From positions 24,552,001 to 24,616,000 of the forward strand of contig CM022671.1 in the NCBI GenBank assembly GCA_012295275.1: a stretch of DNA of 64,000 bases, given 5' to 3'. Numbering within the stretch: the stretch's first letter is position 1; each line of letters begins with the position of its first letter. Below the pieces are notes generated by a model. That model saw only the letters and a program-made list of their open reading frames with translations, was not told the origin of the DNA and ran no database searches. The translations under genes and the position numbers were made by a program. The DNA comes from Chrysomallon squamiferum. Taxonomy: Eukaryota > Animalia > Mollusca. Below, in pieces: positions 1,616 to 55,082 of this stretch.

Positions 1616-2183
1616 TCAATAAATTTTATATTTTATTTTAATTTTTTTTATTTTTTGTTTTGGGTATATTTCAGATTTATTTATTTACAATAAATGTACA
1701 TCCATTCTTGTTCCGCTTAGCTAATCTTCTGAACTCTTAAAGCAGAACAGATAACACGAAATTGCTCAATGGCAAATTTAAACACGTTTCCTAACAACAT
1801 TGGCTGCCGGTTATGTTTTGGGTTTATTAATTCTGATAAAAGAGTATATTCACGCACTTTATTTATAAATTAACCCAGTTACCCTACCAAATCTCATCTT
1901 TTCATCAAACATCCAATTCTATACTGAGATCAGAATCTTTTATTTATATTTATCTATTGAAACAAAATAAAAGGCATAATGACATGAACTGTATTAAGAT
2001 CTTGAGTTTTTAAAATTAATTTTAAAAAATCATAATTTGCCTTCACTTGTTATACATGTATATATAAAAGATGTCGGATGTGTTTCAGTGCATTAAATAA
2101 ATAAATCTAGTAATAATTCCTCTTTTTTTTTTCTTTTTTTTTTTTACTATATATATATTAGTTAAGTGTGTTTACAAATAAAG

Positions 2184-3085
2184 ATGCGATATGTGGCTGC
2201 TTACTTGCTGTCAGTTCTCGGGGGGAATGACAGTCCAAATACAGACGATATTAAAAAGATTCTTGGCAGCGTTGCAGTTGACGTCGATGAACAGAGATTA
2301 ATGTTGGTTATCAGACAGCTCAGTGGCCAGAATATTAATCAGTTAATGGAAAAAGGTGATAAAATGAAATGAACAATTACTTTTGTATGGGTGTTGTGGG
2401 TATAGGTCTAAATCTCTTCTTTGTTTTTTTTTTTTTTTTTTTTTTTTTAAATTCAAAAATAATAAACTGGATCCCATTTGATCGTCAAAACAAACAAAAA
2501 TTAACTCGTTTTACATTTATATAATTTTACTTTGTGCTTTAAATTTCTATAAATTGCATACAGTATTAATTACTGCAAATTACACAATTTTACAAATAAA
2601 TATCTTGAAGAGAATAAAAATGGCGAACTATTTAAAAACTAATTAGATGATGTTTATTTATTTATTTTGATTTATTAGATTAAGAGAACAGTAATTCATT
2701 TAAGAATGAATTTCTTATTGGAAAGTAACGATGTTTCTGTGTTAAAACAGGTAAGAAGATTCAGAAAACTGAGGTTATAATTCCACCCACGTCTGTTTGT
2801 CAGGTTTGAACTCGCCATTGTTCCTTTTCTTCAATATAGGTATGGAACGACTTTACGTACTAACATCTCACACGCAAGAAACTCAAAATGAAGAATCTCA
2901 TTCTGACGATCAGAAAAATACAAGCGGTAAGATGTTTTTAAGTAATAATTAATATTTGGTAATAATGTAAATGTGTACACTATATGTCAATATATACGTT
3001 TATAATTTAAGGTGATGAACCTGTAAATGATGACAGTGACTTCGAAGATGATGACGAGAACGTAATTGGTAGTCTTTTTGGCTAA
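2184..3085 (+). CDS. Divergent 60S acidic ribosomal protein P2 paralog (110 aa)
   Basis: Exons 2184-2355, 2840-2926, 3012-3085; both introns GT-AG and phase 1 as in the neighbouring RPLP2. N-terminus MRYVAAYLLSVLGGNDSPNTDDIKKILGSV is clearly P2; C-terminus DDSDFEDDDENVIGSLFG* is a degenerate P-protein tail. Confidence 0.85.
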
Positions 3086-3909
3086 CAGGGAAACGTCTGT
3101 GTTTTGCATAGTATCTGATATAATTTGTCAGTTAATTTCTTCTTCAAAAAAACCCCCAAAAAACAAGAAACAAATAGTAAAAAAAGATAAATGATGAAAT
3201 ACATCCACAATATTTGTAAATTGTTTGATGTGTAGATCACGTTTTTAACACACAGGTTGCTTAAATCAGGTTTTTGATTTTGCATTTTTTAATATATTAT
3301 TATTGTTTTGTTGTCGCAGCTTTGGTATTTTTAACATTTTGTACTAAGTTTATCTGGTATACATATATCTGCATGTTAATTTTTGTACATTTTTAAATCA
3401 ATCTTAAATTAATGAACCATTTGTTTATTAAACTTACTTCATTTGCAAAATATGTTTGCTTTGTTCTTTGTATATTGTTAATTATTACTGTCATCAAGTC
3501 AGTTATTGTTCTGCCTCGTCTTAAAACAGGGTTTTGCATAAAAATCATAAAATGTAATTCATGTTTAACCTGCAGCTGTTGACTTACATGCCTTTACGAT
3601 GTAGTTTACATATTAACTGTGCACAGGATAAAAACTGCTTTATACTACTTATCTTAGAGAGATTAAATAAAATTTCCTTTTAAAATGTATCAACATTTCA
3701 TCACCATTTATATTCTTGACATTATCCCTTTGAATTATTTTCTTCTCAAATTCACTTCCAAAGAACCAATCCTGGTCTACGTTATCTTATAATAAAATAA
3801 ATGGGTTTTTTTATTAATTTATTAATTTAACTGATGTTATAAAACTATTGTAAATAACAAAAGCACAGCATTTTGTTGGTAAAAGTTTATTTTGTACATG
3901 GTACATCCT

Positions 3910-5006
3910 TTAGTCAAACAGACCAAAGCCCATGTCTTCATCTTCATCTTCAGATTCTGCTTTCTTCTCTTCTTTCTTGCCTATTGATTTAAAATAATGT
4001 ACATGTTATGAAACTTGTTCAGAAAAATGTTAATGAGAAATATATTACAGAAGAAAAAAGTATTTGACAGTATTGTTATTTTATCAACAAATTGGTGGGT
4101 TTAATCTCCAATTTATAAACAAGGCAAGGAACAGTTCTGTCTTAATAATTTTACAGCATCAGACAATTTTTAATAGCCTTTTTAAATTTATCTTTTCAAA
4201 AGTAACTTGACTGCAATAATACTGTTTAAAAATAAGATTTCAACAGCATAAATTATTTAGTAACTGAACATATATGAAAAATATTTTAAATGAAATGGCT
4301 TGTTATGATTACACGGGCGAACTAAATACTGAGACCAGTTTAATAGTTACTGTGACAATGACTTTGTAATTACCTCTATTAAGAATTTTTTTTTTTTTTT
4401 AAATATATAAATATGGTCAAATAATATCCAGAAAATTGAATGCTTTGCATAATACCATTTGGAAAATATTCACATATCTTGATTCGCCTTACCCACTGGG
4501 CAATAAACAAATCATCTGCAGTTTTATCAAGACTTGTACTTACTTTCAGCAGGTGCTGCAGCTGGAGCAACACTGCCACCACCAGTACTTGCTGCAGCTG
4601 TTACAGCAACAGCACCACCTGATGGCACAGATTGAAGTTTCTTCTGCCCTGTAAAAAACAGTTTCAAAAACTACAAATCTTCGTTAACATACAAGTCTGA
4701 AAAGTTATTAGTAACATATTTCTTATGACCTATCTTAATTCAGTATCAACTATCAATTATCATGAATATGAAAATTTTTATAGCTATTAGCTTGGCCATT
4801 TAATTTTGAATTTCACTATTTGGAATACATTTTATACCTTCAGCAATCAGCGTTTCCAGATTTTTTCCTTCAAGTTCAGAAATGATCTTTTTAATTTTGT
4901 CCGCTTCTGCTTCAATTCCAACACTTCCAAGAATTTTCTCAATCATGGCAGCATTTGGTGTATTGCCTCCAAGGGCAGCAAGCAGATAAGCGGCCACGTA
5001 ACGCAT
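3910..5006 (-). CDS. RPLP2: 60S acidic ribosomal protein P2 (114 aa)
   Basis: Coding exons 5006-4838, 4648-4544, 3980-3910; MRYVAAYLLAALGGN..., Ala/Gly hinge, tail KKAESEDEDEDMGFGLFD*. AATAAA on minus strand at 3886-3891. Confidence 0.97.
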
Positions 5007-5479
5007 TCTGAAAACAGAAAAAGTTTAAATACCTCCGAATAATGCAGTAATATTTGCAGCAAAAACAGAATGCATTAAAAATAATAATATTAATGATTGA
5101 AAATATAAAGTTTCGAAATAATCTGGTGAACTAATAAAGATAAATCAAAATCCCTTGCTATGCCAAGTTGAAGTTGATCATTTGTTAACCGTAATGATAG
5201 TGCCATCGCAGAACGATAACCCTAAAGTATGGGACCACATTATAAATTTAGACCATTTTTTCCCTCGGCTAAAAAGAAAAAAGAAGTTAGCTAAGAAAGC
5301 CAAATATCGCCATTTTTATTACTTCGTTAAAACCACGTGGTGAAAAGTGATTTAGATTTTGTACTTTTAACTTAATCAAGAAAAGTGTTCTTTTCTAAGA
5401 GAATGCCTTTTATGGAAGCTGTTATTGTCACATTTTAACACACTTTATTTTTATAAAAATATAACTATAAAGGCCTTAC

Positions 5480-5547
5480 TTTAAGTCGTAAGAAGACACG
5501 AAACGTAGTGCACGCCTTGTTCGTAAGAATTTCTTTAGTGAAAAAGG
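5480..5547 (-). promoter_or_regulatory. RPLP2 non-coding first exon beginning with a 5'TOP/TCT initiator
   Basis: Minus strand reads CCTTTTTC (5547-5540), typical of ribosomal protein gene starts, and ends at a GTAAGG donor (5479). Acceptor at 5008-5009 leaves one base before the ATG. Confidence 0.75.
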
Positions 5548-5874
5548 CCAAAACGAGGCTCGGTGTTTCCCATATCATATCAATTTCGGATGTTTCCGTA
5601 TCTAGTCTTGATTTCAGATATTGTTTGTAGATATTTATATTTTATAGTTAACTGTAAAATGTAAATATAAAAAGGACGAAGTTAAAATAAATCCAAATGG
5701 TTAGAATATCTTTAACAAACAGAAATATTCTGTTTGCACAGAAATGTTCAAAATGTTATTTTTACAATGTTTTAAAAATAAAGGGAGATAATTACTATGC
5801 CAGGAATAAGAAAGAAAAATCGAGATTTTAGATTTATTTTTTTAGAAAGGGGAATAATTCAATAATTGTAAATA
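5548..5874. promoter_or_regulatory. Bidirectional promoter region RPLP2/MED21
   Basis: About 330 bp separate the inferred RPLP2 TSS from the MED21 ATG; CpG-containing, with TTCCG/CGGA ETS-like cores near 5587-5599. Confidence 0.6.
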
Positions 5875-8176
5875 ATGGCCGATAGATTAACACAGTTGCA
5901 AGATGCAGTTAACCAGGTGTGAATTAATACAATTAACTAACGTTATTTATAATGTATAAATATTTAAAAACAAAGAATATATTTTATAATCAAAGTAACA
6001 GTTCAAATTTGTTTGAGGATATTAACTGTGAATGTGACTGTCATGGTAAAGCATAAGCAAAGCAGTCACTACTAATAGTTTTACTAGTAAATAGTATTGT
6101 TAGTATTACCAACAGTAATACTGAAAAAGTGTAATGTTATTATTATTACTATTACTATTTTACATATAACATAGGACTGTAAACAGTGTAATGACCAGAT
6201 GTTACGACTAGAGTAGGGATCGTAGTGCCAAAACAAAAGTGTAACTGTGCTGCATGTAGAATTGTGAGAATAGCTTAATGACATAAATAATAACTCTGTT
6301 TTTGAGTAATAATAAGGTTATTGAGTCCAGATTATATTAATTATTGTGATAATGACATATCTGCTAATAAAATGAAGACTGAAGCTACATTTACCTTTTT
6401 ATCAACATTTGGCATTAAATATTTGATATATTTGTTCTTCTTTATTTCCTTTCTTGCTTCATATGTTTTCATGTCATACAAAATGGTAGATGTACATTAT
6501 ATGTGGGTTTTTTTAATCTTTTTTTTTTTTTTCTCAGCAAGCAGATCAGTTTTGTAACAGTATTGGTATTCTTCAGCAATGTGCTCAGCCCAGTCCACTC
6601 ACTGAATTTGAGAAACCAGCTGGAAAAGTAGCACCTTCTCCACAAGAAGGTTTTTTTTTTTTTTTTTGTAATATTTTAATTCATAAAGCTTTTTTTTTTT
6701 TTTTTTTTTGTAGATTTTTGGTTTGTAAACTGTAACTGAGAACAATATATTATTGAAAAGAAGAAAAAGCAAGCATTGTAAATTTAACATAGTATTTCTG
6801 AAGGTGTAAAAAGTAAATAATAATAAAAAAAAATTGATTTTATATAGCTAATAAAAAATATAGTTAAAAACTGAAAATGATTTTTGAAAGTAATCATTAT
6901 AATGTATTTCTTTTAAATTTAAAAAAGAATCTTTTTATTTCAGATTATGCTGTTCTGTTTTCCAAGTTGATTGCAAGAACTGCGAAGGATATTGATGTGT
7001 TAATTGATTCTCTCCCTAGTGAAGAGTCAACTTTTGAATTACAGGTACATAAGTACACAGTGTTGTTTACTTATTCTACAGTTTAGATCATTTATTAAAT
7101 AAAAAATTTCAGAAGTCAAAAATACATGCACCTCTTTCTGAGTGTGTGTATGGTCAAAATATTTTGAGTATACTTTGAGGTATTTGTTTGAGGGACCAGT
7201 CTTTTCTAATAATGAAGTATGGCAAGATGTAGTTATATACAGAGTAAAACATTGTAAGTAGCTGCACCTGCAGTTTGATTGGTTGTTATTTTTCTGAAAC
7301 AGTTTGCATATAAATACTTGGGCTGTACAAACTTTTTGTATGACTGAAAATACTACATATTGTTTAAACAAATAAAGCAATAAGTTTCAGAGAACATATT
7401 TAGGCCATTTGTTCATTCCATTTTAATTAAACCTTATGGGAAAGAACAAGATAATAGGTTTTAAAATTGGAGGAAAGAATTTATTTTAATTGTAAACCTT
7501 AATATTTGTTATTTAGAACTGACAACAGTTTGAGAAGACATATAACCTCTCCATTTGTTGCATTAGTTTGCCCATTTCCCATTTCATCCCTTAACTCCTA
7601 CTTATTTATGTGCTTCCCTGTTGGTTGAATGTAATGCTGCTGTATGATAATTATATTTCTTGTACAGGTGTGGGATGTATTTTCAGATAGTTGTACGTAA
7701 ACAAACTTTATTTTATGCTGAATAGCTTTAAGAAGTCTTGCATATTATTTATATAAATATGAAATATGAATGGAATTTGTATTTAGACTTGGATCCTGTT
7801 CTGAGGCTACCTCTTTATATTCTAAAATAAGAAAAATTTTAAAATCCAAAACACTTCCTGTCCCAAGCATTTTGGATAAAGGATTCTCAAGCTGTATAAT
7901 AATTAATATTCATGAAACATTATCCAACATTTTACAGTCAATAATTTTATAATTATTAAATTTGTATCGAGATGACATTACGTATTGAGTTATTCATTAA
8001 TTCAGATGGCAAGTCTTCGTAAACTGGAAGTGGAGAACCAAGAATCTTCAAGACATTTAGAGGCTGTTGTCCACTCAGGTGAAGTTCTCCTGGAAAATAT
8101 TCAAAATGCCTTACATGATATTGCACAGTCACAGCTTCGCTGTCAGGCAATGGAGACAGATGATTCAACATTGTAG
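5875..8176 (+). CDS. MED21: Mediator of RNA polymerase II transcription subunit 21 (141 aa)
   Basis: Exons 5875-5916 ([14 protein letters not shown]), 6538-6649 ([14 protein letters not shown]...), 6944-7044 (...[21 protein letters not shown]...), 8006-8176 (...[13 protein letters not shown]...); phases consistent, 426 nt in total. Confidence 0.96.
7665..7894. mobile_element. Tc1/mariner Tigger-type (Tigger4/MER46-like) non-autonomous relic
   Basis: Right end AAAATCCAAAACACTTCCTGTCCCAAGCATTTTGGATAAAGGATTCTCAAGCTG followed by TA resembles the recalled Tigger4 terminus (...AACACTTCTGGTCCCAAGCATTTCGGATAAGGGATACTCAACCTG). Internal TTTAGACTTGG and ACAAACTTT blocks also match; possible left end TA-CAGGT at 7663-7669. 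Confidence 0.75.
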
Positions 8177-11319: not shown

Positions 11320-33334
<22,015 letters not shown>

Positions 33335-54046: not shown

Positions 54047-54293
54047 ATGGAAAACAGATTTCTTCTATGTTCGCTGGTGGTGCTTGTTCTTTGTGTTTTC
54101 ATCAGCATTGGACGTGAAATACACAAACCTCGAAACTGCAAGGAGAGGGGGCAATGCTGCACTGGACAGAATAACACATGTTTTGCCCAAGGGCCGCGTT
54201 TAGATAGGAACCCTAACGAAACGCACTGTTACTGTGATGCAAACTGTATAATAATGGGCGATTGTTGTATAGACTTTCACCAGACATGCAAAG
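54047..54293 (+). CDS. SBSPON: First coding exon of a somatomedin-B and thrombospondin type-1 domain-containing protein (partial gene)
   Basis: Signal peptide MENRFLLCSLVVLVLCVFISIG then C-x5-CC-x6-CFAQGPRLDR...CYCDANC-x3-GDCC-x-DF-x3-C, matching the SBSPON/RPE-spondin SMB domain; phase-1 donor AAAG|GTATTG. The TSP1 exon was not found in the remaining 9.7 kb, so orthology rests on this exon only. Confidence 0.82.
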
Positions 54294-55082
54294 GTATTGT
54301 TTTCTTTTCTTCTTACTTTATTCATTCATTCATTCATTCATTCATTCATTCATTCATTTTGTTTTACATAAATACCTTTCTTTGTTACTAATTAATAAGT
54401 AATAATAATAATAATAATAATAAATTAATCATAGTCATAAACTGTATAATTAATTATAATTAGTTAAACCAAACCATTGATTTATTCTTTAATTATTATT
54501 ATTAATATTATTAATATTATTGGTAGTACTAATAGTATAATAGTAAAGTAGTAGTAGTAGTAGTAGTAGTTTAAAACATTTCAGATGACATATCAGATTT
54601 GACATTTTCTTTATTTTCTTGTGAACAGCTAACTATTATTAACAACCTTCTGATCTTTCTAATACTAATAGCAATAATGTAACTGCTTATTCATTTTGAC
54701 CAATCACAAAACACAATCTTCCTTACGTTATGTGTTACGAATATATTTTATTCGTTCGTTCAGTTTAGTACCAAGTGAGTGCACAATGTTTTTTTTATGC
54801 ATGATGTAAGATATAATATTCGTTTGTTTCTAAATGTATTTCTGTCTATCGCTACTGTTTATCAACAAACTGAGCTCTTTGCTTCGTGATATTTACAACC
54901 GTGATTACATCATGCATTATCAGCAGCGTGTACGCTAAAATATTCGTCGACAAAGTTTTGTAGAAGGGTATGATTATACAGTGTTTTATTTACGATTAGG
55001 CCTAAAGCTAGAGTCATTAAAACTCATAACGATCTGAAGTTCAGTTTGATGAGTTTAAAGTCAGTGTATAGTTTTTATATAT

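Follow-up and report, generated by a model that had tools for sequence, protein, structure and literature searches.

A divergent, intact second P2 stalk-protein gene next to RPLP2 in Chrysomallon squamiferum

In animals, the C-terminal tail of the ribosomal P proteins is regarded as almost invariant, since it is used by elongation factors, by GCN2 and by ribosome-inactivating proteins. In the DNA analysed here (the window: 64,000 nt of contig CM022671.1, positions 24,552,001 to 24,616,000 of the forward strand), the canonical RPLP2 gene lies next to a second P2 gene with another ending. The question raised by this locus is whether this neighbour is a working gene and what a P2 protein with such an ending might do. 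In the original prediction it was regarded as an inverted RPLP2 duplicate and a putative specialised stalk subunit.

The inverted arrangement, the matching intron phases and the open frame were all borne out. The paralog consists of three plus-strand exons (2184-2355, 2840-2926 and 3012-3085) that are bounded by GT-AG and together form an open frame of 333 nt (110 codons). Exon 1 encodes the N-terminal dimerisation domain of P2 (helices 1-3 and most of helix 4) and is followed by a phase-1 intron. Exon 2 encodes the end of helix 4 and a polar Thr/Gln/Glu/Ser hinge, and the coding part of exon 3 an acidic tract with a CK2-type Ser, the tail ENVIGSLFG and the stop, these two exons being defined by the frame and by RNA junctions. 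Canonical RPLP2 (3910-5007, minus strand; coding exons 5006-4838, 4648-4544 and 3980-3910) encodes a 114-aa product with the tail DMGFGLFD. In both genes the two introns are in phase 1 and their positions correspond. The genes are convergent, with ca. 825 bp between the two stops. Their DNA aligns in exon 1 only (70% over 98 nt, E 2e-6) and not in the introns, and the proteins are identical at 37 of 115 aligned positions. Over 56 codon pairs pN is 0.31 and pS 0.78, a saturated value which indicates that the duplication is old.

RNA evidence was drawn from four runs of a single study (X1 to X4) as unstranded contigs, which show presence and not absence and whose depth was not taken as expression level. 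In X1, contigs contain both paralog junctions in the sense GT-AG orientation, the shorter side of the first junction being only 30 letters, and cover the UTRs from 2161 to 3745. The paralog is thus expressed as spliced RNA in one of the four runs. The 5' UTR extends at least over 2161-2183, its start being cut at a masked pyrimidine run (2108-2160), while the 3' UTR (3086-3801) is covered to 3745 and has its putative end at AATAAA signals at 3791 and 3796. A pyrimidine tract at 2117-2146, 40-65 nt upstream of the ATG, may represent a TOP-like start or, alternatively, the relic of a splice acceptor, and an X1 contig also covers 1672-1948, upstream of the paralog. An alternative exon at 2751, the first codons of which resemble canonical exon 2, was rejected: it is used by no RNA junction, the orthologue described below matches the exon at 2840, and the RNA contigs differ from the window nearby in intron 1 by a 27-nt insertion (at 2792, in X1 and X3) and a 1-nt deletion (at 2739, in X1).

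The picture in the other runs is more complex. Contigs of X2 to X4 contain no paralog junction, canonical junctions being found in all four runs, and what they cover of the paralog is unspliced sequence without exon 1, in part on contigs of the canonical gene. The spliced canonical contig runs beyond its first poly(A) signal to 3131 in X2, 2530 in X3 and 3158 in X4, and that of X3 passes unspliced through paralog exons 3 and 2. Genomic DNA is an unlikely source of this intronic cover since the canonical introns are uncovered in all four runs, and the cover over the paralog therefore probably stems from RNA. It is most simply explained by a canonical transcript with a long 3' extension antisense to the paralog, bearing in mind that unstranded contigs can merge overlapping transcripts. 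The paralog 3' UTR overlaps this extension, and it is possible that such a long antisense 3' UTR (2523-3879) suppresses the paralog where canonical P2 is expressed. Contig pieces in three runs end at 2523-2530, and a minus-strand AATAAA cluster occurs at 2658-2676. A further run, X5, has only short AT-rich pieces, which do not bear on the differences between RNA and window.

Unspliced cover without exon 1, carried in part by canonical contigs, is what a decaying duplicate or an annotation artefact could produce, that is, a transcribed pseudogene whose RNA is mostly read-through from its neighbour; the long terminal branch of the window copy, which also has an unusual composition, points the same way. 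Such decay is nevertheless very improbable and already largely refuted by the sense junctions of X1, by an intact orthologue and by domain-specific conservation. Indeed, exon 1 is matched best (74%; next matches at most 65%) by a P2-like protein of 108 aa from the vent snail Gigantopelta aegis, which ends in FADIFG and whose frame has not been lost. The two proteins are identical at 46 of 63 positions in the N-terminal domain versus only 4 of 25 in the hinge (Fisher p 2e-6). Moreover, an open frame would be improbable without selection, as only 0.4% of 20,000 neutral copies in a substitution-only simulation kept it at 0.5 substitutions per site.

According to PMC7895826, the G. aegis annotation has two consecutive RPLP2 genes beside MED21, a clathrin heavy chain gene and a somatomedin-B gene, and both RPLP2 genes have one-to-one partners in Chrysomallon. 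These neighbours are also those of the window. The Gigantopelta/Chrysomallon split is given in the published excerpt as 116 Ma (interval 71-184); the gene pair has been retained in these two peltospirids split ~116 Ma and apparently also in three abalones. The G. aegis proteome table lists neither P2 gene, the canonical one included, and is uninformative on the paralog. Together, these data support the paralog as an intact spliced gene under constraint.

Several further features of the neighbourhood were recorded. Canonical RPLP2 has a non-coding first exon (5480-5553, minus strand, donor at 5480) to which loose ends of X2 and X4 match, with a putative start at a pyrimidine-rich candidate near 5550. 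It stands head-to-head with MED21, the first exons of which (5875-7044, plus strand) serve as a synteny marker and were recognised from weak Pfam Med21 matches and the G. aegis gene table. The ~320-390 bp between the two genes (5480-5875) are likely a bidirectional promoter. Together with a multi-exon clathrin heavy chain gene (15065-30831) and a somatomedin-B-domain gene (exon near 54047-54295), MED21 reproduces the G. aegis block, part of which is listed as syntenic in Pomacea. The canonical P2 of the window (5006-4838, minus strand) shows a one-residue deletion near position 16 and is devoid of Asp22, a residue present in 99% of 212 canonical-tail P2.

These 212 canonical-tail P2, out of 416 proteins, and 11 mollusc P2-like proteins formed the comparison set. 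The N-terminal dimerisation domain is kept, as had been proposed: exon 1 matches human P2 with E 2e-15, versus 2e-3 for the archaeal aP1. With the PF00428 profile the G. aegis orthologue scores 40.3 bits (cut-off 28.1), and window exon 1 alone, which is a fragment, 24.6 bits, below the cut-off. The residues by which human P2 contacts P1 (A5, L8, L9, I26, V30 and I55; excerpts of PMC3326305) are identical in five of six cases, position 55 being Met as in 51% of the 212 canonical-tail P2. The four-helix domain, the P1 contacts and the intron positions are common to the paralog and eukaryotic P2 (RPLP2, PF00428; human P1-P2, PDB 2LBF/4BEH); both also have an acidic tract, a final Leu-Phe and a disordered linker of comparable length. 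An AlphaFold model made for the G. aegis orthologue, not the window protein (62-row alignment), shows four helices with confidence, a disordered stretch (68-95) and, at low confidence (pLDDT ~57), a terminal helix (99-106). It fits human P2 at 1.4 A over 55 columns, human P2 is among its top Foldseek matches, and the ESM Atlas yielded general P2 clusters only.

The kept contacts bear on the idea of an extra-ribosomal protein, free in the cytoplasm as a homodimer or paired with P1, that would compete for elongation factors or GCN2. P2 does homodimerise in solution and several non-interface positions of the paralog are unusual (Ala31, Met40, Gln49 and Tyr63 each occur in 0/212 canonical-tail P2), but with the P1-contact residues kept, and P1 displacing P2 homodimers spontaneously (PMC3326305, in part), this role appears improbable.

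Helix 3 of the domain is altered. Lys41 is exposed on this helix in P2, and P1 has a hydrophobic residue there (available passages of PMC3326305). Unlike eukaryotic P2 with its charged face of D37, R38 and K41, the paralog has Q37, R38 and L41 (Met40-Leu41 being encoded at 2301-2306, plus strand), and Pro66 is lost. Position 41 is hydrophobic in 11/11 mollusc P2-like proteins versus 24/212 canonical-tail P2, in which it is usually Lys, and Pro66 is lost in 10/11 versus 6/212, the mollusc counts being inflated since these 11 proteins represent 7 lineages and were retrieved with profiles carrying the scored features. Ordinary P2 of wheat (Leu41), Ciona and corals is likewise hydrophobic at position 41.

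Hinge and tail read as originally described. The Ala+Gly+Pro fraction of the hinge is 0.07 versus 0.58 in the canonical protein, so that the paralog is without an Ala/Gly/Pro-rich hinge, and 47 residues follow position 63 versus 51. In one assay it was the length of the hinge that mattered and not its sequence (excerpt of PMC3794596). At the C-terminus, ENVIGSLFG keeps only Leu-Phe of DMGFGLFD: DMGFG is replaced, the Gly-Phe-Gly turn is lost and the terminal Asp has become Gly. The MGFGLFD end was found in 109 of 120 retrieved P2 proteins, largely from fish. The tail is indeed non-canonical, as claimed, but with its Leu-Phe pair and a 10-residue acidic tract retained it departs less from the canonical form than first appears; its last 25 residues include 10 acidic and 0 basic residues (4 basic in the canonical protein). 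All 11 mollusc P2-like tails have an L/I-F end, 8-11 acidic residues in the last 25 and 45-53 residues after position 63, and in 9/11 the Gly that canonical P2 has four residues before Phe is replaced by a hydrophobic one. The paralog has a single S-x-x-E CK2-type site, 14 residues before Phe. CK2 sites are normal for P proteins (PMC11624264, in part); the G. aegis and Mytilus proteins have no S-x-x-E site within 16 residues of Phe, and the candidate is not conserved in register. In one X3 contig, an A-to-G difference at 3048 changes Asp to Gly in the acidic tract, either as an allele or by editing.

The spacing of the tail, in the nine proteins with this hydrophobic residue four before Phe, is that of L103/L106/F107 in archaeal aP1. 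In Pyrococcus horikoshii, aP1 ends in EALAGLSALFG (PMC5887453, in part), with the same hydrophobic-x-x-Leu-Phe-Gly end as the paralog, whose N-terminal domain is, unlike that of aP1, clearly P2; the likeness is six residues long and convergent. As far as the excerpts of PMC5887453 and PMC4267659 go, L103, L106 and F107 of aP1 are essential for aEF1A and aEF2 binding, Gly102, which is also required for aEF2 binding, corresponds to Val in the paralog, and the GFGL stretch lost in the paralog is the turn seen with trichosanthin. In silkworm, the equivalent Leu and Phe are required for eEF1A-dependent GTPase (excerpt of PMC4267659). Since this Leu-Phe, needed for eEF1A function, is kept, the tail has more likely been retuned than switched off. 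Even the two peltospirid orthologues end differently, a divergence that is compatible with weak constraint as well as with new specificity.

Weak constraint is the core of a reading in which the paralog is a structural stand-in, selection acting only on the dimerisation domain to stabilise P1 and the stalk while hinge and tail drift, the P0 and P1 tails being sufficient, with no specialised translation. The low hinge identity between orthologues (4/25) and the variation of tails between genera agree with it, as do silkworm stalks with the P1 tail alone, which stay active at slightly above the level of P2 tail alone (available part of PMC3616719), and the recurrence of similar odd-tailed P2 copies in a mayfly, fungi and a slime mould. 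On the other hand, L/I-F, the acidic tract and the length of 45-53 residues would not be expected to persist in 11/11 proteins if the tail were free, nor would the proteins share the hydrophobic residue 41 (11/11 vs 24/212) and the loss of Pro66 (10/11 vs 6/212). We regard this reading as unlikely, though worth keeping in mind. Less likely still is a brake or storage subunit that joins stalks or sequesters P1 and lowers factor recruitment, for instance in gametes or dormant cells, its hydrophobic helix-3 face binding another partner. The loss of the canonical GFG and of basic residues (0 vs 4 in the last 25), the new hydrophobic residue on the outward face of P2 helix 3 (excerpts of PMC3326305) and spliced RNA in only one of four runs would suit it, but the factor-binding Leu-Phe is retained and hydrophobic residue 41 is shared with ordinary P2 of wheat, Ciona and corals.

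How far this type of protein extends was addressed by profile searches, which detected odd-tailed P2-like proteins in Haliotis (3 species), Patella, Aplysia, Mytilus (3) and Tegillarca. In the three abalones, the accession numbers of P2-like and canonical P2 are 1, 2 and 8 apart, with contigs equal in size in two. Near-consecutive RefSeq accessions presumably mark adjoining genes, and the numbering thus suggests that the abalone P2-like copy adjoins the canonical gene. The Aplysia, Patella, Mytilus and Tegillarca proteins, for which no separate canonical P2 was retrieved, are taken as probable paralogs. The window paralog is identical to the abalone P2-like protein at 37/65 positions, to abalone canonical P2 at 31/65 and to its own neighbour at 29/64. 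A recent duplication of the window gene alone is disfavoured by these identities and by the orthologue, although the AU test does not reject it (p 0.19).

In a tree of 47 rows and 68 domain columns, the window and Gigantopelta proteins group at 99/97 and join the abalone copies at 96/87. After removal of 18 rows (unnamed, near-duplicate, long-branch or surplus outgroup), the 29-row domain tree joins peltospirid and abalone copies at only 86/79. For domain-only trees, AU tests rejected neither one mollusc clade (p 0.49), nor one gastropod clade (p 0.51), nor a peltospirid-only (p 0.39) or abalone-only (p 0.35) duplication. With 13 tail columns added (27 rows), a tree that takes in the trait's own columns as well as long branches, 8/9 P2-like rows form one clade at 95/94 with Tegillarca outside, an abalone-only duplication is rejected (p 0.005) and a peltospirid-only one nearly so (p 0.082). 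An origin shared with the abalone copies is thus likely from sequence comparison, and the limpet, sea-hare and mussel P2-like proteins appear to group with the window paralog with moderate tree support. Odd-tailed P2 in a mayfly, fungi and a slime mould show that such divergence recurs in eukaryotes. Five proteins of the set (P0235, P0238, P0266, P0333 and P0350; mayfly, two fungi, slime mould and one other) have polar hinges and mostly odd tails. Animal-type P2 sequences under Enterococcus and Salmonella names (P0033, P0046, P0085 and P0157) are probably contamination of public records.

The reading that we favour, as probably correct, is that the paralog is an old, selectively kept, spliced variant P2 which would pair with P1 and still recruit factors with changed affinity. 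Its N-terminal domain would fold like P2 and dimerise with P1, and the dimer would load on outer stalk positions of the uL10/P0 spine. The polar hinge would form a disordered tether of near-normal length, and the acidic tract and terminal Leu-Phe would still dock on eEF1A/eEF2. With Gly-Phe-Gly lost and a hydrophobic residue four before Phe, the end may form a short aP1-like helix, changing affinity without abolishing it. In expressing cells the paralog would replace ordinary P2 on the stalk, so that a ribosome would carry up to two variant tails besides three canonical ones, and elongation would be tuned quantitatively in some restricted cell type or cell state. The specialised stalk subunit of the original prediction thus stands as far as an intact, spliced and constrained gene is concerned; what that proposal had not noted is how old the gene is, that helix 3 is altered and that the tail has an archaeal-like spacing. 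Its suggestion of altered toxin sensitivity is left without support, since three of the five tails would still be the canonical ones of P0 and P1; resistance is unlikely if these tails are canonical. P1 reportedly has the leading role for ricin, going by the title of PMC5514047.

Retained P2 duplicates are known in teleosts (rplp2/rplp2l, RPLP2a/b), where both copies are among the paralogs found on zebrafish ribosomes (excerpts of PMC7072992 and PMC11383705); unlike the tandem pair of the window with its rewritten tail, they stem from whole-genome duplication and lie on different chromosomes. Germline paralogs (mouse eL39L; gonad switching in Drosophila) offer a model of a divergent, low-abundance paralog replacing the main protein (PMC11883436, in part). 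For these, which are not stalk proteins, incorporation and tissue restriction have been shown, whereas the snail paralog is known from gene and RNA only. The G. aegis protein and those of other molluscs, orthologue and probable orthologues, are automatically annotated and named only P2-like. A full-text literature search, with most subscription journals outside its scope, found no paper describing a divergent mollusc P2 paralog; 12 of 13 supplementary files of PMC7142155 were searched and contain no P2 rows, mentions of P2-like in PMC8533556 and a mussel preprint do not specify the copy, and the excerpt of a T. cruzi P0 paper holds no usable passage on unusual tails. In the literature searched, then, P2 duplicates in fish and germline paralog switching in mouse and fly are already known, and a described mollusc P2 paralog was not found.

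A more far-reaching and rather doubtful proposal is that molluscs have kept a dedicated second P2 since before the gastropod/bivalve split, in which a helical tail of archaeal type has evolved anew and helix 3 has a hydrophobic, P1-like face, and that it serves in a specialised stalk (e.g. in the germline) which deals with elongation factors and GCN2 in its own way. If true, nature would have tested, outside the vertebrates, whether the near-invariant tail of the P proteins can be retuned. With such copies in abalones and mussels, the question could be addressed in farmed animals, and the silkworm hybrid-ribosome assay offers a direct test of the tail. Retained over a long time with nothing of the canonical tail but the acidic tract and Leu-Phe, the paralog amounts to a natural experiment on which features of the tail are essential, and it bears on whether stalk composition can specialise ribosomes.
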